A stretch of 63,512 bases of DNA, the filler included, from Sandaracinaceae bacterium (GTDB taxonomy: Bacteria; Myxococcota_A; Polyangia; Polyangiales; JADJQN01), in assembly GCA_947483975.1 (NCBI GenBank). It is 4 parts of 4 records of this genome, joined end to end, with 100 filler letters (N's around TTAATTAATTAA, not from the genome) between each part and the next. Parts side by side here need not be neighbours in the genome. Positions count along the whole stretch, not along the records: positions 32,244 to 47,848 come from CANKOL010000087.1; 3 more parts are not named here. One strand, given 5' to 3'. The position numbers and the translations under genes were made by a program. A model generated the notes under the pieces. It had not been told where the DNA came from, searched no databases, and saw only the letters and a program-made list of their open reading frames with translations. Position 1 is the stretch's first letter; every line of letters begins with the position of its first letter. Shown here piece by piece: positions 395 through 47,948 of this stretch.

Positions 395-406
395 GGAAGG
401 CTCCCG

Positions 407-15113: not shown

Positions 15114-15178
15114 GCCCTCGGCCGCTCGACGCGCGTCAGAGCGCCCGCCCGGCGTGATAATGTGGGCCCGGGAAATAA

Positions 15179-26054: not shown

Positions 26055-26055
<1 letters not shown>
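22435..26055 (-). CDS. Large cysteine-rich lipoprotein (~1206 aa)
   Basis: ATG at 26055 overlaps upstream stop (TGATG); lipobox SAGC; CxxGxxGCxC repeats; DGCE...CGxC (STIG1-like) repeats; beta-rich C-terminus. Confidence 0.85.
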
Positions 26056-31868
<5,813 letters not shown>

Positions 31869-31883
31869 AGAGATCTCCATCAC

Positions 31884-32143: not shown

Positions 32144-32243
32144 NNNNNNNNNNNNNNNNNNNNNNNNNNNNNNNNNNNNNNNNNNNNTTAATTAATTAAN
32201 NNNNNNNNNNNNNNNNNNNNNNNNNNNNNNNNNNNNNNNNNNN
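32144..32243. other. Contig junction spacer
   Basis: N run with TTAATTAATTAA. Confidence 0.98.
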
Positions 32244-32367
32244 GGGGTCGCGAGCGGCGCGCTCGACGCGGCGCGCGTGCGGAGCTTCCTCGCGCTCCGG
32301 GGAGAGGCCCGCGACACCGCAGAGCGTCGGCTCCAGCGCCCGCGCGGCCGTCGCTGATCGTTGGAGC

Positions 32368-32649
32368 TCAGACGATCGGGAGCCCGGCGGCGCGAGCGAG
32401 CGCGCGCAGGGCGGTCATCTCGAGGATGCCGACGGACGCGATCGCGACGAGCGCGTTGCCGTTCGACGCGAGGTCGCGCATCCGGTCGCGCACCAAGCTG
32501 ACGAGCTTCGCGCCCTCGTCGTGAGCGAAGAGCACGACCACGTTCTTTTCCGCGCGCGTGTGTCGCTCGGCGACGGGCGCCCAATCCGAGCGGGGCGAGG
32601 CGACGATCAGGACGGTCTCGGGGCGTTCGACTTCGGCTGAGACAGGCAT
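32368..32649 (-). CDS. Small hypothetical protein
   Basis: GGAGG upstream of ATG at 32649; 93 aa with alternating alpha/beta pattern. Confidence 0.55.
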   Translation of the reverse strand: MPVSAEVERPETVLIVASPRSDWAPVAERHTRAEKNVVVLFAHDEGAKLVSLVRDRMRDLASNGNALVAIASVGILEMTALRALARAAGLPIV

Positions 32650-32775
32650 CGCGCCTCCGTAAGGCAATCCGCGCGGGCTGGCCAGATATCGACCAGGCGC
32701 GTCCCTCCGAGCGCGCCGCGTCTTGACCCCTCGGCCTGCGGGCGCTACTAAGCCGCCGCCCGCGACCCCGCCGGC

Positions 32776-32847
32776 GAGCCGTTAGCTCAGTGGCAGAGCA
32801 GCGGGCTTTTAACCCGACGGTCGCAGGTTCAATCCCTGCACGGCTCA
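32776..32847 (+). tRNA. tRNA-Lys (TTT)
   Basis: Acceptor GAGCCGT/ACGGCTC, D-arm TAGCTCAGTGG, anticodon loop CT-TTT-AA, T-loop GGTTCAATCC. Confidence 0.93.
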
Positions 32848-32860
32848 CCCGAGATTCTCA

Positions 32861-32936
32861 GTCCCCATCGTCTAGAGGCCCAGGACGGCGGCTTTTCACG
32901 CCGCTAACGGGGGTTCGAATCCCCCTGGGGACGCCA
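32861..32936 (+). tRNA. tRNA-Glu (TTC)
   Basis: Acceptor GTCCCCA/TGGGGAC, anticodon stem GCGGC/GCCGC with loop TT-TTC-AC, GGTTCGAATCC, encoded CCA. Confidence 0.95.
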
Positions 32937-34596
32937 CATTAGTGACACCACGATCGACGAGGGTGGCCGGACCGAACACGGCCATCCCGTCGAGGCGCCA
33001 GCGAGGGCGGCCCTCTTCGTCGTCCTCGGGGAAGGCGCGGATGCCGTCGGGGAACAGCGCCCCCACGACGTCGCGGGCTGCCAAAGTGTCCGCCCGCATG
33101 CGCTCTGACAGCGCGGCGAGTTGCTCTCGTGCCTCGCGCTTCGCCCGCTTGAGCTCGAGGGAGATCACCTTGGCGCCGTCCGCCACCGGCATCTCTGCCA
33201 ACTCGGCAACCATCGCGCTCAGCTTCGCCTGACGCTGGCGGATCGCCTCGAGCACGGGCTCCGCCGCCGAGCCTGCCACCGTGAGCGCGTCCGTGAGGCG
33301 AGCGATCTCCGCGCGGAGCTGCGCAGCCTCCGCCTCGAGGGCGACACGATCGCGACGAGATGGCTTGGTGAACCGGGCGACGAGGCGGCGCTCCACCACC
33401 GCCATGAGCTCCTCGAGCAGCCCGTGGTGCTCGAGCTCGTCGATCAAGAACTTGGTGACCGCGTCATCGACCGCGCTCATCGGACGGCGACGGCCGTTGG
33501 AGCACGCCTCGGGTCCGCGGTTCCGGTGGTAGCTGCACGCGTAGGCGCGGATCTTCTTCTTGCCGTCCTTCGAGTGAACGACCTGCACCGAGCCGGCGCA
33601 CTGACCGCACCGCAGGAGACCGCTGAGCAGGAACTGCGGCGGTCGCCCCACGCGCTTCCCACCGCTGGCGAGCGCGCGCCCCGGTCGCTTGACCGCCGCG
33701 GCAGCGAAGAGCTCGTCGGACACGACGCGCAGCTCTGGCGCGGGGACGAGCATCCACTCCTCGCGGTCGCGCTCCACGCGCACCTTCGTGCCGCCCCGGT
33801 ACGTCTTCTGCGTGCGGTTCCACGGCACGAAGCCGCGGTAGCGGTCGTTGATCAAGATCGAGCGCACCGTCGAGGGGCTCCACGAGCCCGTGCCGCGTCG
33901 TCCTGCCCGTGGCGATGAGACGCCGTCCGCGTTGAGGGCTCGCGCGATCTTCCGGAGTCCAAGTCCGGCGGAGTACATCTCGAACATGCGCAGCACGACG
34001 GCGGCCTCGGCCTCGTTGACCTCGTACGTCGTGCGCACGCGAACCGGCCGGCCGTCGGGGCCGACGCCGAGCACCGGGACGTTCGTGTAGCCGAAGACCG
34101 CGCCGCCCGCGTTGCAGCGGCGCTCAGCTTTGCCCTTCAGGTGCTCGTACACGCGAGACGACACGCGCTCGCGCTCGATCTCGCTGCCGTAGTTCTTGAT
34201 CGTCGCGATCAGCTTTTGCGTCGGATTGTCGAGCAGCACCTCCTCGCCGCTCGAGTAGAAGAAGAGCCGCACGCCCGCTTCGAGCAAGTCCTGCATCAGC
34301 AGACCGGTGCGGTGCATGTCGCCGCCGAGGCGCGTCTCGTCGCGCACGATTAGCGCGTCGAACTCCGACGCCGAGGCCGCCGCCATCATCTTCCAGAGCG
34401 CCGGCCGGTTCTTGAACTCCGCTCGCGACTTCGCGTCATCGATGTAGACGTGCTCGTCCGCGACGATGCCACCACGTCGTTCGATCGCCGCGCGAGCCTC
34501 GCGAATCTGCGTCTCTGTGGACGCGAGCTGCTCGTCGGTGCTCTTGCGCGCGTAGATCGCCCAGCGACGAGGCTCGCTCTGATTCTTGCGCGCCAT
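32896..34596 (-). CDS. Large serine recombinase (integrase)
   Basis: Catalytic YARKST, RPAL, DETRLG; recombinase domain (FGY..., W..STVRSILIN..YRG); Zn ribbon LSGLLRCGQC...YAC...C; coiled coil; ATG at 34596 overlaps upstream stop. Confidence 0.95.
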   Translation of the reverse strand: MARKNQSEPRRWAIYARKSTDEQLASTETQIREARAAIERRGGIVADEHVYIDDAKSRAEFKNRPALWKMMAAASASEFDALIVRDETRLGGDMHRTGLLMQDLLEAGVRLFFYSSGEEVLLDNPTQKLIATIKNYGSEIERERVSSRVYEHLKGKAERRCNAGGAVFGYTNVPVLGVGPDGRPVRVRTTYEVNEAEAAVVLRMFEMYSAGLGLRKIARALNADGVSSPRAGRRGTGSWSPSTVRSILINDRYRGFVPWNRTQKTYRGGTKVRVERDREEWMLVPAPELRVVSDELFAAAAVKRPGRALASGGKRVGRPPQFLLSGLLRCGQCAGSVQVVHSKDGKKKIRAYACSYHRNRGPEACSNGRRRPMSAVDDAVTKFLIDELEHHGLLEELMAVVERRLVARFTKPSRRDRVALEAEAAQLRAEIARLTDALTVAGSAAEPVLEAIRQRQAKLSAMVAELAEMPVADGAKVISLELKRAKREAREQLAALSERMRADTLAARDVVGALFPDGIRAFPEDDEEGRPRWRLDGMAVFGPATLVDRGVTNVASPGGFEPPLAA

Positions 34597-35006
34597 CAGC
34601 GAGCACCCACCGACGCAGGGCCGATGATCAAGTCCGCGATGCGCTCGAGGAGATTGCGGACCGGCTGTGTCAGCTCGCCGTTCTCCGCCCGCACGAGGGT
34701 CCGCGAGAAGTAGCCGCGCCGCACGAGATCGAGCGTGCCGGTGGCCGCGTCCGCCGGCCACGTCGCGTCGAACTGCGCCGACGCGTCACCGATGCGGACC
34801 ACGAGGCGCACGGGCGACAAATGCCGCGTGGGCGAGATGATGTCGAACATGCGGGCCGCCTCCACGACCGCTCGCGCCGGATCATTCGCGCCGATCGACT
34901 TGATCATGGTCACGGCGCCCCGGCTGAGGAACAACGTCCCGCGCCCAACGCGAGGCGGAACATCATCATCGGCGCGCGACGCCAGCAATGCGCTCGCGGC
35001 ACTCAT
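34596..35006 (-). CDS. Hypothetical protein coupled to the integrase
   Basis: Start overlaps the upstream stop (ATGA) and stop overlaps the integrase ATG. Confidence 0.65.
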   Translation of the reverse strand: MSAASALLASRADDDVPPRVGRGTLFLSRGAVTMIKSIGANDPARAVVEAARMFDIISPTRHLSPVRLVVRIGDASAQFDATWPADAATGTLDLVRRGYFSRTLVRAENGELTQPVRNLLERIADLIIGPASVGAR

Positions 35007-35752
35007 TGCGGACGCCCTCCGATCCAGTCACTGCGTTGCGGGTACAGGCGTCCCTTCCCGTCAGCGATGCGCATCTGAGGCTCGAGGGCTGGCAGGCCGC
35101 CCAGTGGAATCGAAATGCGCAAGTAGCCCGGGCGGTCTGCATGCGCAGAGAAGCCGGCTAGCTTGCCGTTCCGCCGCCGACCACGCCGACCCACCCCCGC
35201 ATCGCGCAGATACTCATCATACGTACGCAGATCGCCTCGAAGCGCGATCCAGAACCGCTTCTCGGTCGGCGACACGAGGAGGTAGAGCGGGCTCTCTTCA
35301 TCGACCATGAAGCCGCCCACCAAGAAAGACGATTGGCCCGTCCGCGTCGCGCCCGCTGTGTAGACACGAGCTTGCACCGAGACACCTGGCTTGATGACCA
35401 ACATCTCGTCGGCCGCCTCGGGCTCGACCGTGCGGACCTCATCCACCGCGCTGATCTGTGCGAGCCGTGTGCGCCCCGGAGTGAATGCGAGAAGCTGCAA
35501 CCCGAATCGGCCGAGCCCTTCACGAAGCGTCGTCGCGGCGTCGTACTTGTACTTCCCCGAAGTAGCTCCATTATGGCCGGTCATGAGCGTGCCATCGAGC
35601 GCTCGCAGCAACGCACTTCGCGCAAAAACTCCGCAGACAACCCGAATACCAAGCTCGGCAAGAAACGCCTCGGCAGCTTTGACATCTGGGCACATGCCGC
35701 TATCAACGAGCTGCTGGGTGTTCCCGAGTTCAGGCATCTCCGCGGTCGGCAT
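35003..35752 (-). CDS. Hypothetical protein (first leftward gene of the element)
   Basis: Protein-like composition from ATG at 35752; coupled to the next gene; start uncertain. Confidence 0.6.
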   Translation of the reverse strand: MPTAEMPELGNTQQLVDSGMCPDVKAAEAFLAELGIRVVCGVFARSALLRALDGTLMTGHNGATSGKYKYDAATTLREGLGRFGLQLLAFTPGRTRLAQISAVDEVRTVEPEAADEMLVIKPGVSVQARVYTAGATRTGQSSFLVGGFMVDEESPLYLLVSPTEKRFWIALRGDLRTYDEYLRDAGVGRRGRRRNGKLAGFSAHADRPGYLRISIPLGGLPALEPQMRIADGKGRLYPQRSDWIGGRPQ

Positions 35753-35843
35753 GCAGGCCTTGTACCCCAAACCGGCCCGCGGGCAAGTAGATGTTGCGTA
35801 TGCCGGAAGTTGACCATTAGAGGCCGGGGGAGTACGGTGGCTC

Positions 35844-36023
35844 ATGCCCGAAGCCACCCGAGTCACGTTTCGTCTGCCCCGCCAATACGCGCTCGCCGTT
35901 CGCGAGCTCCGTCGGTCTGACCCTGCGATCCGAACCCGCACCGACGCGCTCCTACGCGTGATCAGCGCGGGGCTTCGGTCGCTGAAGCTCGAACCACCAA
36001 CCACTCGCACGCGGGCGCGGTAG
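35844..36023 (+). CDS. Small ribbon-helix-helix (CopG/Arc-like) DNA-binding protein, 59 aa
   Basis: Below ORF-track cutoff; GGGGAG RBS; MPEATRVTFRLPRQYALAVRELRRSDPAIRTRTDALLRVISAGLRSL fits strand-helix-helix pattern; ends 5 nt before next ATG. Confidence 0.7.
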   Translation: MPEATRVTFRLPRQYALAVRELRRSDPAIRTRTDALLRVISAGLRSLKLEPPTTRTRAR

Positions 36024-36028
36024 TTCTA

Positions 36029-37126
36029 ATGCGCACCCTCCCGCAGATCTGCGCCGAAGCCGGCGGTGCGGTGCCCGCCACGCCCGGCATCCTGACCTTC
36101 CACCTCAGCAGCGGGCTCGAGACGATCCGCCTCACGCGGACCCCCACGGCCGCGGAGTGTGTCGCCCTTGAGTTTGATCTTTCGGCCGACTTCCTCGGGC
36201 TGAGCACGTACTCGACCGCACTCGACGCGGCTGAACTCCTGGTGCGCGTCGCCGACGGGCAATGGGGCTTCACGCAGGTGGTGTCGACGATCCCGATCTC
36301 GATCATGCCGATGTCGAGCCCCGCCACCGTGGTGGTGTGCGATGTCGATCCCGCGTGCTTGGCCTCGTTCCTCAACGAGGTAGGAACGGCCGGCGCGGCG
36401 GCGGGCATCGACGATCTCCAGATGGTGCTCGGCGCGACGCGGGGCGGGGCCCGCGAGGACCTCGAGACGCTGTCCGGCGTCGTGCTGGACATCGACACAT
36501 CTGTCGCCGACCCCTGCACGCACCACCTCCTGCACCAAGCTCCCACGCCGAACGTCGTGTACTCGACGGAGCGTGTCGGTGGTGCCCGCATCCTCTACCT
36601 GTTCGATCGCGCGTACGCGCTCACATCGGCGGTGCTCGAGAAGCGGCGCGACCTCGTCGAGCAGCTGGCGCTCGCGTATCCCGGGGTTGACCCGCGGTGC
36701 GGCGACGTGACCCAACGCCAGCACCTGCCCACCACCTCGCGCACGATCAAGGGGCCTCGCCGCCTCGTGAAGCGCACCGCTGTGCAGCTCTCGACGGACC
36801 CGATCCTCCTCGAGAAGGTGACCCCCGGCCTCCCGAGCTTCGTCCTCGAGGCGCTCTCGCTCGGCGGCGGTGCAGTCTCGGATGACGAGCGCTGCGAGAT
36901 CGAAGCGTACCTCGACGGTCGCGGCATTCCTGCTCCTCCGGTCGGGGCTCGCAGCCCGCTCTACAGCCGCTGCCCCTTGAAGCAGCACAACACCGGAAAG
37001 ACCTACGTGAATCGACACGCCGACGGGCGCATCACGGTCCACTGCCTCGGCGGCCACGCAGGCGCAGGGCCGCAGCACTGGACCGAGCAGAATCTCCTCG
37101 AGCTCGCCCGCGAGGTGCCGTCATGA
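36029..37126 (+). CDS. Putative AEP-superfamily primase (VirE_N/BT4734-like) with C-terminal Zn-finger
   Basis: SGVVLDID (DxD), ST..GGARILY, DPRCGD.TQR, and CP..H...C..H at the C-terminus. Confidence 0.55.
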   Translation: MRTLPQICAEAGGAVPATPGILTFHLSSGLETIRLTRTPTAAECVALEFDLSADFLGLSTYSTALDAAELLVRVADGQWGFTQVVSTIPISIMPMSSPATVVVCDVDPACLASFLNEVGTAGAAAGIDDLQMVLGATRGGAREDLETLSGVVLDIDTSVADPCTHHLLHQAPTPNVVYSTERVGGARILYLFDRAYALTSAVLEKRRDLVEQLALAYPGVDPRCGDVTQRQHLPTTSRTIKGPRRLVKRTAVQLSTDPILLEKVTPGLPSFVLEALSLGGGAVSDDERCEIEAYLDGRGIPAPPVGARSPLYSRCPLKQHNTGKTYVNRHADGRITVHCLGGHAGAGPQHWTEQNLLELAREVPS

Positions 37127-38841
37127 GCCGCGCGCGTTCGCGGGTCGCGACACTCCCAGTCACTCGCGGCAACATGAAGTTCCTCGAGACGACCCTGAAG
37201 CAGCTTGGCTTCGACGCCCCGCGCATCGCTGCTGCCGTTCGTCAGTGGCGTCGCGCGATCGAACAGGCGTCGCGGTTCGCGCAGCTCCTCAGCGAGGTGC
37301 ACGACCGTCGGCTGCGCGGCGTCAGCGGCGCGCTGGAGCTGGAGATCGTCTACGACGAGCACTCTCGGATGCTCGAGTACACGAGCCGAGGGGGGCCTCA
37401 GCTTCCCGTCTCGGTGCGCCCGAAGTCGGCACTCTCGGCGAAGCAGCACCGCCACGAGCTCGCGACGATGAACGTCCAGTGGATCGGGGTGCCCGAGGGG
37501 AAGGTCGACCCGGTGGTCTCGCTGTCCCCCGACGCTGCGTCGCTCACGAGCCGCGCCGCTGGTGGTGATCCCGGCGCCCTTGGCGAACTGGGCGTGAGCA
37601 GCGTGAAGGTCTACGCGTTCCCGATCGCGTTCGTGCGCGCGAGCACGTCTCGCGACCCTGTGACCGGCCTCGTCACTCGCGTAGAGGTGCCTGCGCTGGC
37701 CGCTGCGTCGCCGTCGTTCGACGCGTTCTCGTTCCTGAACGCGATGCGGCTCGCGGGGGATCTGCCGCTGAAGTCCGAGAACGACGTTCGGCGCTTCATG
37801 ATGGCGCTCGCGGCGCCGCTGCTGCGGGCGGAGATGCCTGGTCTCCTCGGCGTGTACTGGGTCGTCGGACCGTCGGGCACCGGGAAAGAGCTCGTGCTCG
37901 TCGCCATCAAGGAGGTCTGGAAGGCGGTTGCCACACTGGCGAGCCGCGAGTCCTTCGAGCTCAAGGACGGCGGCGGAGGTGAGGACCAGAAGTCGTTCGC
38001 CGCCAACCGCCGCGCGGTGTACGTGCACTTCAGAGAGGCAGGCAAGCGCGGGATCCAGGCCGTCGAAGACTTCATCCGCCTGACCGGCGCAGCGAGGGTG
38101 CCCGCGCGTGGCCTCTACGAGCAGGCGGGCGAGATCGACAACTCGTTCGTCTACCTGGCCGACTCCGCGGAGTCCGTGCCGGATCGCCGCGAGATCAGCC
38201 GCCGGGTGGTCCCCATCAACGCGGTGGCAGTGCCGGGTGGCACCGATGGTCGCGGTCTGCTGAAGCGCGTTCGCGCTGTCGCCCCGCTCATCATCGCGAG
38301 CCTGAAGCAGCAGATCGAGGCCGCGGGGATCGAGGCGCTCGACATCCGGAGCGCGGACGGCCGCCCGCTCGCGGTCGCGTTCCTCGCGAAGCTGCTCGGC
38401 GCCTCGCTCGACACCGTTCAGGGGGAGAGCCTCGACGACATCTTCCGCGCGCTGCTGCTCTTCATCAGCACACCGTATCTCCTGCGGAGCGCTGAGCGCG
38501 TGCTCACGAACGGGCCAGCCTTCGCGTCGAAGCACACCGCGTTCAGCCCGTCGTTCTTCGTCGAGACGATGATGAAGCACGCGGGCTTCCAGGAACTCTT
38601 CACGCAGATTCGCCACGGGAAGTACCTGTTCGAGCGCATCAATCGCGAGCTCGCGGACCCAGGGCTCGTGGGCGACGGCGCGGACTACGCGGTCGTGCTG
38701 CTGGATGGCGTCGAGTACGGGCTGCGCTTCTTCGGCACGCGGCGCGACGCCATGACGTTCTTCCCGGTCGTCTCGACCATGGGGCCTGCCCCATCGCCAG
38801 CTGACGCAGGTTCGATCCCGCGTCCGTTGAGGGTGACGTGA
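37123..38841 (+). CDS. P-loop NTPase, probable replicative helicase
   Basis: Walker A YWVVGPSGTGKE; RREISRR arginine-finger-like segment; coupled to genes on both sides. Confidence 0.6.
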   Translation: MSRARSRVATLPVTRGNMKFLETTLKQLGFDAPRIAAAVRQWRRAIEQASRFAQLLSEVHDRRLRGVSGALELEIVYDEHSRMLEYTSRGGPQLPVSVRPKSALSAKQHRHELATMNVQWIGVPEGKVDPVVSLSPDAASLTSRAAGGDPGALGELGVSSVKVYAFPIAFVRASTSRDPVTGLVTRVEVPALAAASPSFDAFSFLNAMRLAGDLPLKSENDVRRFMMALAAPLLRAEMPGLLGVYWVVGPSGTGKELVLVAIKEVWKAVATLASRESFELKDGGGGEDQKSFAANRRAVYVHFREAGKRGIQAVEDFIRLTGAARVPARGLYEQAGEIDNSFVYLADSAESVPDRREISRRVVPINAVAVPGGTDGRGLLKRVRAVAPLIIASLKQQIEAAGIEALDIRSADGRPLAVAFLAKLLGASLDTVQGESLDDIFRALLLFISTPYLLRSAERVLTNGPAFASKHTAFSPSFFVETMMKHAGFQELFTQIRHGKYLFERINRELADPGLVGDGADYAVVLLDGVEYGLRFFGTRRDAMTFFPVVSTMGPAPSPADAGSIPRPLRVT

Positions 38842-40583
38842 TGACGCTCGTAGCGATCATCTTCGATCGAGGGGAGGTCGCCGCGTACGACGGGATCTCC
38901 TTCAGCTGCGGGATCTGGCCCGCGGCCGCGCTTGCCTCGACGGGCCAGACGATAGCGGCGCTGGATCCCGCCGTAGCGATCCCGTGGTTGCGTGCCCACG
39001 GTGTTGACCTCGCGCAGGTCGAGGTCGTCGACGTCGGTGCGATGCTCCGCGCTCAGGGACACTCGGACGGCCCCGCTGACTTGCTGTACGCCGCGGCGAC
39101 CCTGCACCCTGCACCTCGACCGGAGATCCGACTCGTGCACGCGTGCTTCGCGATGGCGCAGCGGAAGCTGGAGCCCGTGGAGCACGTCGTGCTTACGCAC
39201 ACCACGCGCGAGAACGCGCGAGGCCTGCGCGTGGACCGCGCGCGCGCCGCAGAGCTCGGCACGGAGTACCGGGACCTCCGAGAGGATGCACGCCGCGACC
39301 TCCAGGTCTTCCTGCCGCATCTTGACGATCGCGACATTCGCAGCGAGCCGGCGTTTCGCTCCGCGCTCGAGCAGCGCTTCGGCGCGGCTGTCACGACGAC
39401 CGCGATGGGGTCAACCACCGGCGCGCTCGGTCGAGCGGTCGATGCCCGGCAGGCGCTCATGCAGTTCGCGAACGCCGCCGTCGAGATGCAGAAGATCGCG
39501 GATGGCCCCGACTGCCTCCTGGACTTCCTCTCGTACTACGCCGCGCAGACAGGGCGATTCTCGGCGCCCGGCTTCGGCGTCCATAGCCTCCCGAAGCATC
39601 CGCATCCGCGGCTTCGGCCCCTCGTTCGGCAGCGCGAGGTAATCCTTCCATCTCCTGGGCACTGGTTCGCCGCGCGAGACCTCAACGCGATCGAGCCGCG
39701 CGTGCTCGCCCTGCTGTCTGGTGAGGACGCCCTGCTCAAGACGTTCCGCGCCGGCGACGACGTCTACGTGTGGTTCGCCAAGTCCGTGTGGCCCGGCGTC
39801 GTGGTCGAGAAGCGCGGGGAGAACGCCGACCTCCGCGACGTCAGCAAGATCGCGTTCGTGTCTCTCGGTTACGGCACCGGCCTGCCGGCGTTCCACGAGC
39901 AGGTGATGGAGGCTGCGCCGACGTCCACCGAGGAGGACGTCGTGCGCGCGTACGACTCCTTCCAGGCGCAGTTCCCGAAGGTCCAGTCGGCGCACCGCGA
40001 GGCGCTCGGCCTCCTCGTGCGCATGGCGCACGGTGACCACTTCACCGACTGCCCCCTGCTCGGCTGCTCGCTGACCTTCGATGGCAGCGTGCTTCGTGTG
40101 CTCTTGCCCACGGGCCGCACGGTCTTCTACCGCAACGTTCGGGTGACCGTCGACGAGGTCGGAGACCACAGCGTCTGGTTCTCGCGGGTGCGCCCGTCGC
40201 GGAGCTCGGCGACCATCGAGAATGTCCCGCGCTTCCCGCGGCGCAAGGAGCACCGCTTCGATGACGGCGTGGTGCGGCGCTGCCTCGCGCCGCACGTCCT
40301 CGTGCAGAACATCACGCAAGCGGTCGCACGCGACGTCATCGTGCACATGCAGGCCGAGCTGCTCGAGGTGAAGGCGGAGTTTGCGGCCATCGGCCTCGAG
40401 ATCCCGTTCACCGTACACGACGCCATCGTCGCGGAGTCTCTCGCGGTGGACTGGGCGTGGGACGACGTTCAAGCCGTGCTCGCAGACGTGATGGGCCGCG
40501 TCCCGCGCACGCTACCGCAGGCCATGCACGGCCTCCCGCTCGCGTCGGAGGCGGAGATTGGGCCGCGGGAACGGTACGGGTGA
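38838..40583 (+). CDS. Phage-type family A DNA polymerase with reduced N-terminal exonuclease region
   Basis: QTGRFS, motif A DLNAIEPR, motif B RDVSKIAFVSLGYG, LPTGR, QNITQAVARD, motif C VHDA. Confidence 0.88.
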   Translation: MMTLVAIIFDRGEVAAYDGISFSCGIWPAAALASTGQTIAALDPAVAIPWLRAHGVDLAQVEVVDVGAMLRAQGHSDGPADLLYAAATLHPAPRPEIRLVHACFAMAQRKLEPVEHVVLTHTTRENARGLRVDRARAAELGTEYRDLREDARRDLQVFLPHLDDRDIRSEPAFRSALEQRFGAAVTTTAMGSTTGALGRAVDARQALMQFANAAVEMQKIADGPDCLLDFLSYYAAQTGRFSAPGFGVHSLPKHPHPRLRPLVRQREVILPSPGHWFAARDLNAIEPRVLALLSGEDALLKTFRAGDDVYVWFAKSVWPGVVVEKRGENADLRDVSKIAFVSLGYGTGLPAFHEQVMEAAPTSTEEDVVRAYDSFQAQFPKVQSAHREALGLLVRMAHGDHFTDCPLLGCSLTFDGSVLRVLLPTGRTVFYRNVRVTVDEVGDHSVWFSRVRPSRSSATIENVPRFPRRKEHRFDDGVVRRCLAPHVLVQNITQAVARDVIVHMQAELLEVKAEFAAIGLEIPFTVHDAIVAESLAVDWAWDDVQAVLADVMGRVPRTLPQAMHGLPLASEAEIGPRERYG

Positions 40584-40588
40584 GGGTT

Positions 40589-40754
40589 CCGTGCATCCGT
40601 GCATCGCTGGCCAACTCCTCTATTTCAATCCCTCTCTAGCTTCTTCTTTTTCTCTCAAGAAGTTTCAAAAGGAATGCACGGATGCACGGGGCCAATAGAA
40701 ATAAGCATCTCCGCAGCCTCCCTGCTGCACGGGAGATGCACGCGGCATGCACGG
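40589..40754. repeat. Origin-like region: ATGCACGG iterons in inverted arrangement around an AT-rich spacer
   Basis: CCGTGCATCCGTGCAT (40589-40604) is the exact reverse complement of ATGCACGGATGCACGG (40674-40689); further copies at 40726, 40736, 40747. Confidence 0.75.
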
Positions 40755-41306
40755 GCCGCCTGCTGACCACGCCCAACCACGTCGTCTGGCTCATCCGTGC
40801 CTGCCTCGAGGTCTGGCTCCGCGTGACCGCGTCCACCTGCGCGCACGCCGTCGCTGCCCACGGTGATAGCCGACGTCAGCCGCAGCGTGTGCGAATGGTA
40901 CGGATCGCAGCCGAAGCGGACGCTCGAGAGCGACACCCCGACCTGCGGGGTGGCGTTTTCAAAGGCTATTTGCCACCGAAAATCGCAAAAGGCCTCTGGA
41001 GCCCGTTTATAGATTGGTATCGACGATCCGCGCTCCGTACCAAACAGGCCTCGGAACCTCGTATTCGCCTCTGTAGGGGGTGTTATCGGGCCCGAGAGGG
41101 GCGAACCGATACCATTCTCGACCGCGATCCCGAGAACCTCAGCTGCCCGTGGGCGGTGACGCAGTACGCGCGCCATGTGCTCTGCTCGAGTTGGTGTCGG
41201 CAGCGCTCGAGTGCCCGAGCAGGAGGGCGTTGTGCGCCCTCGATGCAGGCGCAGGCGTTGACGCCCGTCTTCGCAGAGCTCCCCGGCGCCTATCACGGAG
41301 CACTCC

Positions 41307-43460
41307 ATGTTCCCTGAGGATCTGCGCCCGTACCAGCGTGCTGCGGTCGAAGCCGCCCTGCGCAGTCTCCACGCGGACACGCCGGCGCTCCTCGTGCTCC
41401 CGCCGGGCGCCGGCAAGACCGCGATCGCGACGGCGGTGGCGGAGGGGTTCCTGAAGTCGAGCCAGGCGGTCGCCTACATCGCGCCGTCTCAGCAGCTGCT
41501 CACTCAGGCGCGCGCTGAGTTCGCGCGTGGCAGCTCGTGCTCCGCTGACGACCTCGCGCGACTGGTGTCCTTCGCGACGACGGTCAGCGCTCTCGGGGTG
41601 CTCGTGAAGCCGATGCCCGCGATGAGCGTCGCGCTCGTGATCGTCGACGAGAGCCACTGGGCGGAGACCGCGACGACCGGCAAGGCCATCCTGGAATGGG
41701 CGCGCCACGCCGGCGTGCCCGTGCTCGGGCTCACGGCGACGCCTTCGCGCGATTCGGTCTATCGGATCGCTCACGAGACGACCCACGACGCCCTCGTTGA
41801 GGCGGGCTTCCTTGCGCGGGCAAGGATCCAGCGCATCCACACCGGGGTCCGGTGGCGAGCCTTCGCCGAGGGCGAAGACCTCTCGGTCCAGTCGCTCGCC
41901 GCGATCGCCGCCAACGTCGACCGGAACAATCTGCTGGTCAAGGCCGTGGTCTCGCGTCCGCAAGCGCTCCCGGCGTTCGTCTTCGGCTGCCATATCGCGC
42001 ACGCCAATGCCCTCGTTCGGCTGTTCAACGCTGCGGGGATCCGCGCCGCCGCGTACCACAGCGGACAGCCAGAGGCCTCGAGCAACGCCGCGCTCCAGGC
42101 GTTTCGTGACGGACATGTTGATGTGCTCGTCGGCGTGCAAGGGCTGACGCTCGGCATCGACGTGCCTCACGCCCGCGGGGTCGTCCTTGGGCGGCCTACG
42201 CTGTCGCCAGCGCTCTTGACGCAGATGATCGGCCGCGGCACACGGCTCGACCCACGCACCGGCAAGATCGAGTTTCACATCATCGAGCTGGTGGACCACG
42301 AGGAAGGCGCGGAGCGCGTGCTGTCCGCCGCCACCGTCGTCGGGCACGGCAGCAGCAGCCCGTGGCGCGTGATCCCACGGCATCGGTTCGACCCGCTCGG
42401 CGAGCCATCGCGCGTGGCGGCGGACGCGCCCGCGAGCATCGCCGACCTGTGGTATCGCCGAGGCCAGACTTTCGGCATCGAGCTCGAGCTCTCTCGCCCA
42501 GAGGGGATCCCGAGCCCAGCGGAGTTCCGGGAGCTGGCGCCGCACTTCAGTCGCGAGATCGACGCGGCTACGGAGAGCATCGGTCGGTGGAGGATCGTCT
42601 ACGACTGCTCCGCCGGCCTGGAGATCGTGTCGCCGATCCTCGAGGGCGAAGACGGCCTGCGCGAGATGGTCATCGCCGTCACCGCGGCCGCGCGCGCAGC
42701 CGAGGCGCATGGCGTCGTCGTCACTTACCGATGCGGCTTCCACCTGCATCTCGGGCTGAACAACGACTACCGATTGGTGCGCCGGGTGCTTCGCGCGAGT
42801 CGGCTGTTCGAGAGCGGATTGGCCACGCTCGTCGCGCCGTCGCGCATCGCCGCGTTCGACGGCTGCACCTATCAGCTTGAGCGCGCGAATCGGTACTGCG
42901 CTCCCCTGCGCGTCGCGATGCCACGGAAGCAGATTGACCGCGCCACCAAGCTCGAACATCTCACGGCGTCCCGGTACCTGAGCGTCAACCCGCTCGCGCT
43001 GACGGAGCACGGCACGATCGAGGTGCGACTTCACAGCGGCACGATCGACCCCGCGAAGATCGGGCTGTGGGTCTCGCTGTGGCAACAGATCATCCACTAC
43101 GCGGAGGGCGCGAAGCGCGTGCCGCGTGTGCTGGACGTCGCGCGGCTCGAGCCGGACGGCGACATCGTCGCGCTCGCGACGCGCCTGCTGCCGGACAAGA
43201 GCGCGACCTTCCTGGAGCGCCTGCATCGGCGTCGCGGGGAGGTGGCAGTCGTCTGGGGGCAGCGCGCGACTCTGGCCCCGTGGCTGCGGTACCGCGACGC
43301 GTGGCAGATCGCACGCATCATGTGGTTGGCGGAGCAACGTCGGCGAGAGCGTCGCGAGCTTGGCCTGGATCGCTGGCCGCACCCCAAGACGTTCCGTATC
43401 CCGCCGAGCCTGGTGGCAGAGATCGAGGCGGAGTGGCGCGCGCAACAAGGTGCGGCGTGA
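41307..43460 (+). CDS. SF2 DExH helicase fused to a putative amidoligase (COOH-NH2 ligase) domain
   Basis: LRPYQ, PGAGKT, DESH, LTATP, GIDVP, QMIGRGTR; then TFGIELEL, YDCS, LEIVSPIL, CGFHLH, RYLSVN, GTIEVRLHSGT. Confidence 0.85.
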   Translation: MFPEDLRPYQRAAVEAALRSLHADTPALLVLPPGAGKTAIATAVAEGFLKSSQAVAYIAPSQQLLTQARAEFARGSSCSADDLARLVSFATTVSALGVLVKPMPAMSVALVIVDESHWAETATTGKAILEWARHAGVPVLGLTATPSRDSVYRIAHETTHDALVEAGFLARARIQRIHTGVRWRAFAEGEDLSVQSLAAIAANVDRNNLLVKAVVSRPQALPAFVFGCHIAHANALVRLFNAAGIRAAAYHSGQPEASSNAALQAFRDGHVDVLVGVQGLTLGIDVPHARGVVLGRPTLSPALLTQMIGRGTRLDPRTGKIEFHIIELVDHEEGAERVLSAATVVGHGSSSPWRVIPRHRFDPLGEPSRVAADAPASIADLWYRRGQTFGIELELSRPEGIPSPAEFRELAPHFSREIDAATESIGRWRIVYDCSAGLEIVSPILEGEDGLREMVIAVTAAARAAEAHGVVVTYRCGFHLHLGLNNDYRLVRRVLRASRLFESGLATLVAPSRIAAFDGCTYQLERANRYCAPLRVAMPRKQIDRATKLEHLTASRYLSVNPLALTEHGTIEVRLHSGTIDPAKIGLWVSLWQQIIHYAEGAKRVPRVLDVARLEPDGDIVALATRLLPDKSATFLERLHRRRGEVAVVWGQRATLAPWLRYRDAWQIARIMWLAEQRRRERRELGLDRWPHPKTFRIPPSLVAEIEAEWRAQQGAA

Positions 43461-43607
43461 CCGCGGGTCAGGCGGACCTCCAGTCGCGCGGGCAGCCCGC
43501 GCCGCTGCTGCGTTCGCAGCGACGTGTCCGAGCAGCTGCGCTGAGCAGCGTCGCGCCTGCCTGCGTCGTGGTCGCGGACTGATCTCTGAGCTTCAGAGGA
43601 GGACTAC

Positions 43608-43952
43608 ATGAGCTGGGACATCCCGTACGACGACAACGACCTCCTCGCGCTCGACGCCATTGTGCAGCGCATCGTGAGGCTCGGCGCGAGCCTGGCTTGG
43701 ATCACCGGGCCCGATGGCGGTCTGTTGGCCATCTGCGAGGCGGGCGAGCCGGGTCTGAGCGAGCCGACGACCATCGCCCGGACCCGACTCCCGGAGGTCG
43801 TCGTCGGCGCGATGGTCACCTCCAGGGTGGACCTCGACGCCGTGGCCGCCGTGCTCGAGGACGTCGACCGCATCTTCGCGCCGTACCGGCTGGCGTATCG
43901 CTCGTCCCGGTCGCACGGCGCGCGCCAGACGGCGGGGTCTCATGGGTACTAA
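43608..43952 (+). CDS. Hypothetical protein
   Basis: Strong GAGGAGG RBS before ATG; 114 aa. Confidence 0.6.
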   Translation: MSWDIPYDDNDLLALDAIVQRIVRLGASLAWITGPDGGLLAICEAGEPGLSEPTTIARTRLPEVVVGAMVTSRVDLDAVAAVLEDVDRIFAPYRLAYRSSRSHGARQTAGSHGY

Positions 43953-44217
43953 CCAGATCGGCTGCCTACGCGCCGTCGAGCGATTCGAGAAGGAGCGCGG
44001 GCCTGGCCGAGGTCGCCGTCTTCAGGTGCTTCCCGCGGGAGGCGGACTTTGACCGCGGGCACGCACAGGAGTGTCCACCGCGACTTCACGTTCGACTCAC
44101 TCGCGTACGCGCCTTGGCGCAACCAACACGGAGCCCGAAGATGATCAACGACCCGCTCACATCCATCAACCGCATCGCGCACCAGAAGCAGACGCAGACC
44201 AAGCGTCGGAGCGCGTC

Positions 44218-44796
44218 ATGACCGCGTCCAGCTTCTCGCCTCGTCTGCCCACCGGCTTCGGTAGCCGTGCGAGGGCGACCTCGGTCGCCACGCACAAGAT
44301 CCATCTCCCTCTGCCGGGGAGCGCGATCTGGCTGCCGCTCACCTTCGGGAAGCACGAAGGCAAGACTCTCCCTCAGGTGGCGCTCACCGATCCCGACTGG
44401 CTCTTCTGGGCCGAGGGCGACGGAATCCTCGTGCGGTTCCGGGTGCCCCGCGCAGTCGAGCTCTGTTTCAGGGCGCGGAACATTCGAATCAGTGACGGGA
44501 CTCGAGGAGCCCGCGTCGCCGACTACGTGCTGAACTCCAGCGGCAAGCTCAGCCACGTCGAGGTCGGCTACGCCAACGAGATGAACCGCAGCGAGGACCG
44601 CGGTGTGGTGCGGCGCCCAGGGCTCGACCTGTCCGTCGCGCACGCGATCGCCGGCCGAGACAAGCTCGGCGCCGAGCGGATTCTCAAGGCGCTCAGCGTG
44701 CACGTCTTCAAGCCGATGGGATGGGCGCGCGTGACCAAGGAGCGCGGAGAGTCGTTCTTCAACGACGCCGCGAACTTCATCCCTATGACCGGCTAG
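44218..44796 (+). CDS. Hypothetical protein with FGKHxG motif (DUF3820 / exonuclease X C-terminal-like)
   Basis: LTFGKHEGKTLPQVALTDPDWLFW; GGAG before ATG at 44218. Confidence 0.65.
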   Translation: MTASSFSPRLPTGFGSRARATSVATHKIHLPLPGSAIWLPLTFGKHEGKTLPQVALTDPDWLFWAEGDGILVRFRVPRAVELCFRARNIRISDGTRGARVADYVLNSSGKLSHVEVGYANEMNRSEDRGVVRRPGLDLSVAHAIAGRDKLGAERILKALSVHVFKPMGWARVTKERGESFFNDAANFIPMTG

Positions 44797-44914
44797 ATCG
44801 CCGAGGCGGCAGGGAGCCCTCACGAGGACGCGCCCGCGCTGACGGAGGCTCGACCCAGAAGTCGGGTGCGCGGAACCGCCGACCGACGTCGGTGTCTGCG
44901 TCGGCGTGAGGAGG

Positions 44915-45583
44915 ATGCTGCAACACTGGGAGGAGGGCGGGTGGGGAACCTACCCGCTCGTCCCGCTCGCCGTTCTCATGCTCGTCGTCGCGGCGCGGCA
45001 GAGCTGGCGCCTCCAGCGCGCCGGGCGACACCTCCGCGTGGTGGTGCCCGCCGCGCTGGAGTCGCTGCGCGTTTCTCACGATGTCGCAGACGCCCTCAGC
45101 GCCCTCGCCGCCCTCGGCGGCTCGCTCGCCCGCGCCGTCGGGGCCGGGCTCGCGCAGCTGCCGGCCTCGACCACCGCCGCGGAGTCCATCGCGCGCACGC
45201 AGCGCAACAGCGGCCTCGCCGTGCTCGATCGTCGCGAGCTCGCGCTACCGGCGGTCGCGAGCTTCTCGACGCTGTTCGGGCTGCTCGGCACCGTCACCGG
45301 CGCGGTGATCACCGCGTCCAGCCCGAACTCGGATGCGGCGTCACGCGCGTATCTCTTGGCGAAGGGCATCAGCGAGTCGCTGAACTGCATCGCGTTCGCC
45401 CTCGTCCTCGCGGTCGTCTGCCTCGCGCTGCACGCCCTGCTCGAGGGCTGGCGCGAGCGGCTGCGCGCGGACGCAGGTCACGCCGTCGCGCTCCTCCACG
45501 CCGACCTCGACGCCCTGCGCCCGTATCTCAGCTTCTTCGGCACGCGCATCTTCGACGAGCGGTGGAGCTACCGAGGTCCGTGA
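44915..45583 (+). CDS. MotA/TolQ/ExbB proton channel family protein
   Basis: EGGW..YPL, FGLLGTVTG, LAKGISESLNCIAFAL; GAGGAGG RBS. Confidence 0.8.
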   Translation: MLQHWEEGGWGTYPLVPLAVLMLVVAARQSWRLQRAGRHLRVVVPAALESLRVSHDVADALSALAALGGSLARAVGAGLAQLPASTTAAESIARTQRNSGLAVLDRRELALPAVASFSTLFGLLGTVTGAVITASSPNSDAASRAYLLAKGISESLNCIAFALVLAVVCLALHALLEGWRERLRADAGHAVALLHADLDALRPYLSFFGTRIFDERWSYRGP

Positions 45584-45713
45584 GCGCCGCCGTGCGGGGA
45601 TCGCATCGACCGCGGCGGTCGCGTTCGCTACCGCTTCCAACGTGGACGGTCACGTCGTCGAGCGCCGCCGGGCGCGTTTCAGAGCGCGCTCACGAAGTGA
45701 ACAACCACCCGCG

Positions 45714-46319
45714 GTGAACCAGGCCCGGGACGCAGAGCACGACCAGCAACTCGAGGACCGCCTTCGCGCGTACGTCCTCGCGACCGGCTGGCTCCGCGAT
45801 GCGCTAATGTCCCTGCGGGACGCCGAAATGCCGGACGCCTGGCTCGCCGCGGGCGCCGTGAGGAACATGGTCTGGGACCGCCTCCACGACCGCGTGCCCG
45901 AGCAACCCAGCGATGTCGATGTCGCGTTCTTCGACCCGCACGACCTTACCGCCGAGCGCGATGCAACCGTCACTGCGGCCTTGCGCTCGCGCCTCGCGTT
46001 GCCGTGGGAGGTGACGAACCAGGCCGCCGTGCATCGCTGGTATCCGCGCGTGTACGGCCGCGAGGTGAGCCCGCTGCGCTCGGCTGCGACCGGCATCGCG
46101 TCGTGGCCGGAGACCGCCACGGCGGTCGGCGTGCGCCTCGAGGGGGACGCGCTCGTCGTCTGCGCGCCGCTCGGGCTCGAGGATCTCTTCGAGCTGCGCT
46201 GGCGCTTCAACGAGGGCGGCTACGCGAGCCGCGAGCAGTTCGACGCGAGGACGCGCTCGAAGCGGATCACGGAGCGGTGGCCGAACGTGCAGGTGCTCAG
46301 CGCGCCGCCGGGCGCTTGA
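45714..46319 (+). CDS. DUF925-family nucleotidyltransferase
   Basis: WLAAGAVRNMVWD, DVDVAFFD, WEVTNQA, WPETATAVGVR, APLGLEDLF; start approximate. Confidence 0.88.
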   Translation: MNQARDAEHDQQLEDRLRAYVLATGWLRDALMSLRDAEMPDAWLAAGAVRNMVWDRLHDRVPEQPSDVDVAFFDPHDLTAERDATVTAALRSRLALPWEVTNQAAVHRWYPRVYGREVSPLRSAATGIASWPETATAVGVRLEGDALVVCAPLGLEDLFELRWRFNEGGYASREQFDARTRSKRITERWPNVQVLSAPPGA

Positions 46320-46432
46320 AGCAAGTCCAGAGCGTCGTGCTGCCCTGGGGAAACGAGACGGACACGAACTCAACGCCCTCGGTGTCGCGGTACGCGGAGT
46401 CTGCCGTCGGCCGGCGCGCTGGTTCCCGCTCC

Positions 46433-46915
46433 TCACCGCCGCCCAATCGCCGCGCACTCCTTGATGATCGCGGCGTCGATCTCCAGTCGCCGCTGTGCGG
46501 AGTGAACGGCATCGGCAGAGTGGTGGAGGGCGAATACCCGCTCGAGGCCGAGCCTCGGATCGCCTGTCCCCACGAAGTCGGCGTCGTGTTCGGCGCAGTG
46601 AAGGAGGTAGCCGATCTCGCCTACCCCGTCGCTCACGGACCGCCGCGCCTCGGCGACGTCCGAAGCAACGTGTTGAATCAGGTGAACCATCGCGTCAAGC
46701 GTGCTCGGGAGCTGCACACCCTGCTCTCGGAGCGCGGAGACGAACAGTTCACGCAGGTCGGCCGGCGTGTCTGCGGGCGTCGCCCCCGCGAGGAACACCA
46801 TGCTGCGGCCATCGACACCGTCGCACACGGCGTCGACGGCAATCTCCCTCAGCTTGTCGACGTCGAGATCGTCGAGAACGTACTTCGCCGCCAGGAGCTT
46901 CAGGTCGGTCATCAC
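46433..46915 (-). CDS. Hypothetical helical protein
   Basis: 160-aa ORF with protein-like composition; no recognised motif. Confidence 0.55.
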   Translation of the reverse strand: MMTDLKLLAAKYVLDDLDVDKLREIAVDAVCDGVDGRSMVFLAGATPADTPADLRELFVSALREQGVQLPSTLDAMVHLIQHVASDVAEARRSVSDGVGEIGYLLHCAEHDADFVGTGDPRLGLERVFALHHSADAVHSAQRRLEIDAAIIKECAAIGRR

Positions 46916-46980
46916 GCTCGTGCCCGCGCAGATGGTGGCACCGCGCCGCCGTCAGTCCACCGCCGGAGGAGCACCCGCGT

Positions 46981-47703
46981 TCACCCCTCGAAGCGAAACG
47001 CGCTGGCCACCACGAAGCTCCGCCCGAGAAGCAGCGCGCGATATCCAGGCCGCGCCTTCATGTGCGGGAGGAGCGACGGCAGTGCGCCGAACTCGCGGAC
47101 AACATCGGCAACCATGCGAGCTCTGCTCTCGGGCGCTCGAAGGAGAAGGCCGTCGCCGTCCGTAAGAACGCGAGACGTCGCGTCCACGAGTCCGTAGCTC
47201 CGCGCGCTACGCCAGCCGTCCGAACCGTCACGCACCCGCCGCGTCAGCGCGTCAAAGAGCGGGACGCCGCAGGACTGCGCGCGAGAGACGAAGACCGACG
47301 CCCACGGCTCGACGTAGTCCACGAGCAGCGGGTGTGCGTCGACGAGCTCGAGGTGGTCGTACGCCGCGCCGACGAAACCGGTCTCCTGCTTGTCGCTGAA
47401 GTGGATGCGGCACGGCGCGCCGGTGTCGGCCTGCACGTCCCAGTAGGTCGTTTGGCGGCGCGCGATCCTTCCCGACCCGCGCAGGTTCGCGGGCACCCTT
47501 GCCGACGGATCCTGCTCTGCGAACACTTCCGCCTCGCGCGCCTCGGGCAGGGTGCGGAGGAAGTCACCGAAGTCGCCCTGCTCGCACCAGTACTCGCCGA
47601 TGACGCCGCGGGTGGTGAACGCGCTGGTGTTGAAGCCGCGTTCGAGGTCGTTGTACCAGACCACCGCGCCCGGCCTCTCCGCCACGACCCAGAAGCCACC
47701 CGT
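46981..47703 (-). pseudogene. Probably 5'-truncated hypothetical protein
   Basis: Frame reads TGGFWVVAERPGAVVWYNDLERGFN...EYWCEQ directly after an in-frame TAG at 47704-47706, so the motif-like block begins upstream of the first usable start. Confidence 0.45.
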
Positions 47704-47848
47704 CTAGGTGACCGTCGGGCAAAGCCCCTGCGGCCCACGGTGCGGCGCTACCGCGGCTCGTGCGCGGCGACGTGGCATCGAGCCCCTGAGCGATCTGGAG
47801 GCGGCGAAGAGCGCCGAGGTCGCTTCTTTGGGCTTCCGCGAGGCCGTA

Positions 47849-47948
47849 NNNNNNNNNNNNNNNNNNNNNNNNNNNNNNNNNNNNNNNNNNNNTTAATTAA
47901 TTAANNNNNNNNNNNNNNNNNNNNNNNNNNNNNNNNNNNNNNNNNNNN
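47849..47948. other. Contig junction spacer
   Basis: N run with TTAATTAATTAA. Confidence 0.98.

Follow-up and report, generated by a model that had tools for sequence, protein, structure and literature searches.

A recurrent helicase-amidoligase fusion as a candidate DNA-guided ligase in conflicts between mobile elements and their hosts

Carboxylate-amine ligases of the family Amidoligase_2 occur widely in phages and mobile elements. The family was reportedly described in 2009 by Iyer, Abhiman, Burroughs and Aravind as 'COOH-NH2 ligase', and we know of no member, the literature searched included, to which a substrate has been assigned biochemically. The Pup ligase PafA and the depupylase Dop provide a glutamine synthetase (GS)-fold precedent for joining a glutamate gamma-carboxylate to a protein lysine. 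Among nucleic-acid motors, RadD (YejH) is a superfamily 2 (SF2) DNA-repair helicase of E. coli with zinc-binding features and features that bind single-stranded-DNA-binding protein (SSB), and TmcA consists of a helicase module and a GNAT acting on tRNA. Here we analysed a gene that joins an SF2 helicase to an amidoligase in one open reading frame (ORF). It lies in a 63,512-nucleotide (nt) stretch of DNA from a Sandaracinaceae bacterium (hereafter the window), which consists of four contigs of a metagenome-assembled genome (MAG; 5.29 Mb, 524 contigs, 81% complete) joined by three N44-TTAATTAATTAA-N44 linkers. A genome search placed the gene with a 100% match at G000:C87:9064-11214, and positions 1-16137 of the window on C84. 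Because N linkers flank the gene-bearing contig on both sides and nothing can be read across them, the gene context is limited to 32244-47848.

41307..43460, plus strand: helicase-amidoligase gene (protein P0001), 717 amino acids (aa), ATG start (ORF list, translation, Pfam)
32244..47848, no strand: gene-bearing contig G000:C87, 15,605 bp (linkers on both sides, genome search)
16138-16237, 32144-32243, 47849-47948: linkers N44-TTAATTAATTAA-N44

The fusion is genuine and no isolated case; its recurrence is the decisive evidence. We tentatively read P0001, at somewhat less than an even chance, as a stand-alone DNA-guided ligase of the gamma-glutamyl type that takes part in conflict between mobile elements and hosts and tags a DNA-bound protein, for which PafA is the precedent. 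The guidance of the ligase by DNA, the gamma-glutamyl chemistry, the target and the role in defence are what we infer from the evidence below.

Two active sites in one polypeptide

The division of P0001 into its parts draws on domain searches, structural models and an alignment (A1) of 22 fused homologues that share 25-55% identity with it; pLDDT is the predicted local distance difference test score.

41319..42302, plus strand: SF2 motor core, aa 5-332, two RecA-like lobes (Pfam, phrog_16, RadD matches, A1)
42306..42374, plus strand: flexible linker, aa 334-356 (pLDDT below 50 at aa 334-338 and 344-356; variable and gapped in A1)
42375..43106, plus strand: GS-fold carboxylate-amine ligase domain (Amidoligase_2), about aa 357-600 (Pfam PF12224, model, fold matches, A1)
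43107..43457, plus strand: C-terminal helical region, aa 601-717 (A1; predicted helices aa 620-684)

Pfam detects ResIII at aa 5-148 (expectation value (E) 2.9e-15, 57 bits, cut-off 22.5), Helicase_C at aa 224-314 (E 1.1e-11, 45.4 bits, cut-off 23.5) and Amidoligase_2 (PF12224) at aa 387-595 (profile positions 3-244 of 245, E 3e-15, 57.2 bits, cut-off 22), all above their cut-offs, and PHROGs returns phrog_16 'DNA helicase' (E 1.6e-57) as well as phrog_2443 'amidoligase enzyme' (E 8.9e-17). An earlier note on this DNA, made from the sequence alone, had recognised both enzymes by their motifs in a single 717-aa ORF. Every one of these motifs is present in the translation, i.e. PPGAGKT (aa 31-38), VDESHW (aa 113-118), LTATPS (aa 142-147), LGIDVP and QMIGRGTR (aa 306-313) in the helicase half, and FGIELE, YDCSAGLEIVSP, CGFHLH, SRYLSVNP and TIEVRLHSGT in the ligase half. 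The ligase set, which that note let begin at about 42468, stands as a set, with FGIELE placed at nt 42471 (aa 389).

A separate model of aa 360-717 (pLDDT 93.1, predicted template modelling score 0.88) shows the glutamine-synthetase/YbdK fold. When comparing it with known structures by VIA-align, GS-type enzymes score Z 14.3-13.1, among them 1-naphthylamine GS (8wwu, Z 14.3) and an archaeal GS (8oow, Z 14.2), and a YbdK homologue scores Z 13.9 (1tt4), with 244-265 residues aligned. Glutamate-cysteine ligase (GCL; 2gwc, Z 12.0), Dop (9cku, Z 12.0) and PafA (4bjr, Z 11.3) follow, and unrelated folds begin at Z ~7. Foldseek gives the same families (E ~1e-6 to 1tt4, 1r8g and GS), with gamma-glutamylmethylamide synthetase also among the fold relatives. 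Within the ligase, F389, G390, E392, E394, W428, D433, E439, G477, H479, E502, S512, R513, N561, E572, R574, H576 and G578 are invariant in A1; a 40-sequence alignment (A2) likewise shows the H, the R and the E-x-R as invariant or nearly so. By analogy with GS, we take the conserved acidic, histidine and arginine residues to form the metal and ATP sites. Since sequence, fold and active-site conservation agree, the amidoligase assignment of the C-terminal half, which the earlier note had made, is confirmed. P0001 thus resembles the known Amidoligase_2 proteins in its near-full PF12224 match, its GS/YbdK fold, the conserved ExE...E...H...ExR set and a tie to GGACT in two family members. It differs from the typical ones in that its ligase is fused to a complete SF2 motor and carries a conserved C-terminal helical extension. 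In A1 this extension is kept to about aa 660, with R642, W650 and W659 invariant and D619 and R643 nearly so, and the last ~55 aa are specific to P0001. With PafA and Dop the ligase shares the GS-like fold, a likeness at fold level only. Unlike them, P0001 has no match to a Pup-ligase Pfam family at E <= 1, and PafA has no helicase fusion.

The motor belongs to SF2 according to Pfam matches to ResIII, DEAD and Helicase_C above cut-offs and the presence of motifs I, II, III and VI. In an AlphaFold model of full-length P0001 (pLDDT 84.7), two RecA lobes are connected through a disordered linker (aa 334-356) to a compact C-terminal domain. By fold the motor matches RadD (7r7j, E 4.4e-16; 7r7j/6jde ~1e-15), a type I HsdR fragment, XPB and RecQ, and by sequence RadD (6jde) is its top relative in the PDB (E 4.9e-15). 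The motor motifs are common to both proteins and RadD is the best NCBIfam model. P0001 is not a RadD orthologue, however, because it reaches a score of only 74.8 in two partial stretches against the cut-off of 720 of the equivalog model NF053632, and a linker and a ligase follow its second RecA lobe in place of RadD's C-terminal part. The motor residues G36-K37-T38 (Walker A), D114-E115-x-H117, T143-A144-T145-P146 and Q306-M307-x-G309-R310-x-x-R313 are likewise invariant in A1, except T143, which is kept in at least 90%. As motor and ligase residues are both kept across the 22 fused homologues, both active sites are under selection.

An assembly artefact, or a gene in decay that no longer has a function, is extremely improbable as an explanation. 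In favour of such an origin one may cite the fragmented MAG with its 524 contigs and 81% completeness, and one relative that is a remnant with an in-frame stop and IS66 genes on both sides. It is contradicted by the uninterrupted 717-aa frame with its gene-like codon-position guanine + cytosine content (GC; 0.72/0.51/0.86 in a genome of 70% GC), by an identical domain order in more than 100 clusters at 50% identity and by the invariant catalytic residues. The junction (about 42306-42470) is moreover spanned by a 12,174-nt contig of the public run X1 (35560-47707) and by a 3,254-nt contig of run X3 (39717-42970), each with 0 differences. This bridging supports the assembly weakly, because both runs may be the source sample and hence not independent. 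The outcomes that the earlier note had named as fatal to its proposal, i.e. a C-terminal domain outside the amidoligase family, an artefact or a one-off, are thus contradicted by the Pfam and fold matches, the bridging contigs and the recurrent homologues.

Recurrence and distribution of the fusion

An exhaustive HMMER search with the ligase half (aa 380-717) retrieved 3596 proteins at E <= 1e-3, of which 665 pass E <= 1e-10 and 60 pass E <= 1e-30. The helicase half is also present in 104 of the best 150 ligase representatives (50% identity), and the architecture is accordingly recurrent; the remaining 46 are short (144-525 aa). Among the best 120 matches in a collection of 5.8 billion proteins, PF12224 is combined with helicase domains in 42 further clusters at 90% identity, which share 24-56% identity with P0001 and are mostly 730-930 aa long. 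Both halves were found in 136 of the 183 family proteins examined. At the level of loci, 28 of 32 encode both halves in a single ORF, three (L007, L123, L129) encode them as two neighbouring ORFs, helicase before amidoligase as in the fusion, and one (L140) has the amidoligase only. Two loci (L003, L107) were left out of this count, as the opposite strand had been chosen and the fused gene was not called, and L191, which is the same contig of length 66,595 as L001, was counted once. The separate ORFs at L007:736-3649, L123:4666-7816 and L129:2619-5375 could be two-gene forms or frameshifts. At L112:6877-12229, a 909-aa helicase-only paralogue lies directly upstream of a complete helicase-amidoligase gene.

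Further domains have been added to the fusion in part of the family. An N-terminal extension of at least 100 aa occurs in 44 of the 136 fused proteins; P0001 is without it. In many homologues (P0003, P0007, P0012, P0013 and others; A1 columns 1-290) these extensions measure 150-200 aa, and their start resembles by eye a DNA-binding motif of the SAP/HeH type, which no tool named. A C-terminal extension of at least 80 aa was found in 18 members. In 36 extended members Pfam detects GGACT in two (P0013 and P0142, C-terminal), GNAT in three (P0040, P0194, P0206), FGE-sulfatase in one (P0129) and an N-terminal helix-turn-helix domain in one (P0222). The carriers of GGACT and GNAT all belong to the 18 C-terminally extended members. 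Through the GGACT fusions the clade is tied to the classical pairing of amidoligase and gamma-glutamylcyclotransferase (GGCT), a pairing that appears, for example, in Clostridium prophage tables (PMC11318856). The usual association with GGCT that the earlier note had named persists in the family, as a fused GGACT in two of the 18 C-terminally extended members; the gene in the window has no such partner. Among its 15 contig ORFs, and among 192 neighbours in other loci, Pfam detects no glutamine amidotransferase (GATase) and no GGCT or GGACT gene, which for the contig agrees with what the earlier note had seen and distinguishes P0001 from the classical phage amidoligase system with its adjacent class-II amidotransferase and/or GGCT gene.

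The distribution of the fusion is scattered over bacterial lineages. The ligase half was not found in the 40 nearest relatives (E <= 1e-10; 30 of the 41 genomes searched, including its own, are at least 90% complete), and it occurs in nine of 400 other genomes sampled from the phylum (E <= 1e-15). Named hosts of fused genes are a Deltaproteobacteria MAG, Myxococcales, Anaeromyxobacteraceae, Corallococcus, Planctomycetales/Planctomycetaceae, Chloroflexi, Geobacter and Pseudomonadales. Among the viral contigs of IMG/VR, the best 80 of 493 relatives match the helicase half only (query residues <=397), with no fused form among these. The motor therefore resembles common phage helicases, as the IMG/VR and PHROGs matches indicate, and the fusion as such is not typical of phages. 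No ligase half was scored in longer multidomain forms (1256-3585 aa), which is weak evidence. Two fungal helicase matches (P0072, P0077) were considered as hidden fusions and rejected, with an hhalign amidoligase probability below 1%.

NCBI names one homologue a 'helicase-related protein'. A full-text literature search returned no paper on the fusion, only reference-list citations and phage annotations; the founding paper of the family by Iyer et al. lies outside that search and may show the architecture. With this limit, the statement in the earlier note that its author did not know the fusion was a fair one. As far as we have seen, the domain family and the motor class were already known, and the fused, stand-alone, conflict-associated form is undescribed in the literature searched.

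Mobile-element and defence contexts

Gene neighbourhoods were compared in 34 loci, i.e. six of 19 genome loci, 27 of 75 metagenome loci and the window contig, with 369 called ORFs. The loci had been chosen for a match over the ligase half, mostly over both halves, and very short contigs were excluded. In an all-against-all comparison no neighbour family is common to more than four of these loci: a tyrosine integrase occurs in four and a WYL-WCX regulator in three, and a family-A DNA polymerase is shared by the window and L116 only. Of the 23 loci whose neighbours were compared with PADLOC, 11 have a match at E <= 1e-8 no more than four genes away, a raw count from selected loci with no background rate to set it against. 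In a Planctomycetales MAG (L002; 847-9367), BrxHI-PglZ-BrxA on the same strand ends 34 nt upstream of the fused gene. In a Deltaproteobacteria MAG (L001; 9956-22176), a bacteriophage exclusion (BREX) cluster and a NucS-like gene are convergent to it, and an integrase, DUF927 and a CHC2 primase lie on the other side. Integrases, AlpA, DUF3631 or primases are found near the fused gene in L001, L003, L006, L110 and L116; L006 and L110 have AlpA together with DUF3631, and L006 additionally PDC-S01, PDC-S35 and PDC-M72A. Restriction-modification genes are of type II in L007 and of type I in L118 and L120, and L118 also encodes BrnT and a Schlafen/AlbA_2 protein. IetA-like AAA proteins occur in L133 and L154, a PLD nuclease in L133 and an HNH protein in L128. 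WYL-WCX regulators adjoin the fused gene in L006, L123, L133 and L195. The last of these, the fourth such case, comes from five extra loci of the same phylum, in which L192 has Fic, MoxR-AAA/DUF2201 and SNF2 genes, L196 large STAND-like ATPases, and L193 is mostly uninformative. At L194:9069-15980 (G183, a one-contig genome), two IS66 transposase genes flank an amidoligase remnant that is interrupted by an in-frame TAG, a case of decay.

This variable mobile and defence context without a conserved partner fits a single-gene system. The fused gene is similar to the single-protein helicase-effectors and to the accessory genes of BREX and restriction-modification systems in PADLOC in that it is stand-alone, sporadic, and found beside BREX, restriction-modification and WYL-regulated genes. 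No model of PADLOC v2 covers the fused architecture or the ligase half: all 28 matches of P0001 fall within aa 3-344, the best being mREase_IV (aa 108-314, E 7.6e-15), and an amide ligase is not among the known defence effectors of this library. The proposal of the earlier note, an ATP-driven translocase coupled to an amide-forming enzyme that could modify DNA or DNA-bound proteins or act in single-gene defence or counter-defence, is thus borne out in part. Its ligase fold, catalytic residues, recurrence, lack of a partner and defence or mobile context are supported; defence activity and target are its conjectural part.

On its own contig the fused gene is preceded by the following features.

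32776..32936, plus strand: tRNA-Lys(UUU) and tRNA-Glu(UUC), abutting the recombinase gene (Rfam 69.2 and 60.5 bits; ARAGORN)
32896..34761, minus strand: large serine recombinase, 621 aa (Pfam Resolvase, Recombinase, Zn_ribbon_recom)
36029..37126, plus strand: 365-aa protein, possibly a RepB/AEP-type primase, a lead only (Atlas feature score 0.96)
37123..38841, plus strand: 572-aa protein, probably a D5/VapE-like NTPase and replicative helicase of the element, a lead only (phrog_1156, Atlas)
38838..40583, plus strand: family-A DNA polymerase, 581 aa (Pfam DNA_pol_A E 1e-11; phrog_17 E 1.3e-35)
40584..41306, no strand: stretch of about 720 bp ahead of the fused gene that lacks a coding signal (third-position GC not raised in any frame; GC ~0.63-0.66)

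The tRNA pair is likely an integration site. A second copy of the tRNA end (att repeat) was not found within the contig, and Rfam detects no RNA in it besides the two tRNAs. The 365-aa protein has no Pfam, PHROG or PADLOC match; in the Atlas cluster that it matches, 84% of the members carry PF16793 RepB_primase. The 572-aa protein matches phrog_1156 'DNA primase' (E 2.4e-5) and, among Atlas structures, VapE-like, D5_N and DUF5906 entries at template modelling scores of 0.43-0.47. The PDB relatives of the polymerase are DNA polymerase nu, polymerase theta and Taq polymerase. Between 36029 and 40583 the three genes overlap by 4 nt each and form a replication module. Since the element that carries them also has the large serine recombinase beside tRNAs, it may be a polymerase-encoding integrative element. 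In L116 the arrangement is mirrored by a CHC2-Toprim primase, a 659-aa protein and a homologous family-A polymerase directly upstream of the fused gene. A 211-aa ORF at 40682-41317 has a codon-position GC of 0.67/0.58/0.69 and no family match. Because the ~720 bp upstream show no coding signal, the fused gene probably has its own control region. Downstream it is followed by small ORFs without assignment and then, at 44906-46319, by a MotA/ExbB-like gene (Pfam E 4.9e-10) and an NTP_transf_6 nucleotidyltransferase gene (E 2e-46), neither of which matches PADLOC.

Such an arrangement bears on two other explanations. The protein could mainly serve the integrative element as a helicase in replication or recombination, like those that phages encode, in which the ligase modifies or regulates the element's replication proteins without any role against invaders. 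The helicase half indeed matches the 'DNA helicase' family phrog_16, the IMG/VR relatives number 493 stand-alone proteins in viral contigs, and in five loci (the window contig, L001, L006, L110 and L116) genes of the primase or replication type immediately precede the fused gene. On the other hand, the element more likely has its replicative helicase in the separate D5/VapE-like NTPase, the stretch without coding signal separates the polymerase from the fused gene, and most loci are without any replication genes. We therefore regard this explanation as quite unlikely.

The second explanation, a DNA hypermodification enzyme of the element, also appears unlikely. Here the helicase would open or scan newly made DNA, and the ligase would add or extend an amino-acid-like group on a modified base as a protection of the element's DNA against host nucleases. 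Amidoligase and amidotransferase genes do co-occur with thymidine-hypermodification genes in phage contigs (PMC8989533), and both in the window and in L116 a family-A polymerase gene precedes the fused gene. A GNAT is fused in three members, and the GNAT enzyme Mom modifies DNA with tRNA-borne glycine (PMC13219725). The fused GNATs match Acetyltransf_1, however, and a Mom-type family is not reported for them. A family-A polymerase is present in only two of the 32 loci, and the best 80 of the 493 IMG/VR relatives have the helicase half only. In the contig and the scanned neighbours, Pfam detects no 5-hydroxymethyluracil (5-hmU) kinase, no dUMP hydroxymethylase, no TET/JBP, no Pplase of the aGPT-Pplase type and no amidotransferase, a search that divergent forms could escape.

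Possible reaction, target and role

In the scheme that we propose for the tentatively favoured DNA-guided ligase, two enzymes would work in one polypeptide, namely a RadD-like SF2 ATPase that binds DNA and travels along it and, behind a flexible linker, a GS-fold ligase. The motor would deliver the ligase to DNA or to a replication fork. With ATP, the ligase would convert a carboxylate, most likely a gamma-carboxylate of the glutamate type, into an acyl-phosphate and join it to an amine, placing an amide tag of the gamma-glutamyl type on a DNA-associated target. We would rank a DNA-bound protein first as the target, as for PafA with Pup, and an amine-bearing DNA base second. The outcome may be interference with the replication of an invader or protection of the element's own replication, and the gene would be a self-sufficient accessory that travels with integrative elements and defence islands.

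GS-fold ligases phosphorylate a carboxylate with ATP and then couple it to an amine, and GS, GCL, YbdK, PuuA-type enzymes and PafA/Dop all act on the gamma-carboxylate of glutamate. GGACT cleaves gamma-glutamyl-amine bonds and acts on free gamma-glutamyl amines. Since the fold relatives use this carboxylate and the enzyme fused in two members cleaves such bonds, the chemistry suggests a gamma-glutamyl-type amide as the product. With a DNA motor on the same chain, the reaction would take place on DNA, and candidate substrates are narrowed down to DNA itself or molecules bound to it. TmcA resembles P0001 in that a nucleoside triphosphate-driven, nucleic-acid-binding module delivers a group-transfer enzyme. 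The two proteins differ in motor class, in chemistry (acetyl transfer vs ATP-dependent amide ligation) and in the tRNA substrate of TmcA, and their catalytic domains are not homologous.

From the same chemistry one could also derive a free product. The protein might make a gamma-glutamyl amine or peptide, acting as a toxin or signal or depleting a metabolite, once the helicase senses foreign nucleic acid. The closest fold relatives (GS, gamma-glutamylmethylamide synthetase, 1-naphthylamine GS and YbdK) are in fact metabolic enzymes of free substrates, and GGACT too acts on free gamma-glutamyl amines. We consider this very unlikely, as a soluble product needs no covalent fusion to a DNA motor, and the fused gene has no conserved neighbour that encodes a transporter, a receptor or a second effector. 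A more far-reaching version of the conflict hypothesis, possible but doubtful, would make the protein a new kind of conflict effector, in which a DNA-tracking motor lets the ligase gamma-glutamylate or amino-acylate targets met on DNA, such as a replication protein of the invader or the free amine on a hypermodified base of a phage, with the GGACT fused in some members as eraser.

It is important to note that several observations weigh against a DNA-guided ligase that tags proteins in conflict. The observations fit a protein as the target no better than DNA or a small molecule. The fold likeness to PafA/Dop (Z 11-12) is below that to metabolic GS enzymes (Z 13-14), and no Pup-like small protein is conserved near the fused genes in the 34-locus comparison. 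None of the 13 proteins of its own contig matches PADLOC at E <= 1e-8, and because the gene follows the primase-like/D5-like/PolA module, a replication role fits there as well as defence. Many of the PADLOC matches of neighbours elsewhere are generic (helicase, AAA, WYL), the loci were selected from pattern-limited scans and are not an unbiased sample, and L004, L106, L119, L129 and L140 have housekeeping neighbours only. Among the public runs there is no RNA run that contains the fused gene.

If the protein protects against phages or plasmids, ATP-dependent amide ligation would join the chemistries of immune effectors, in a one-gene system that spans at least five bacterial lineages. A DNA-modifying activity would instead represent a new route to base hypermodification.

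Elsewhere in the window, the gene for a 1942-aa ORF, a desaturase gene and an MgsA gene belong to other contigs and are not neighbours of the fused gene. The 1942-aa ORF (26055-31883, minus strand) has a weak match to DUF7107 (E 0.0013) as its sole family match. At the end of the gene-bearing contig (47353-47848), the read depth is about five-fold above the rest in all four runs (94 vs ~17 in X1). Judging from this depth, the contig end is a repeat that probably broke the assembly.

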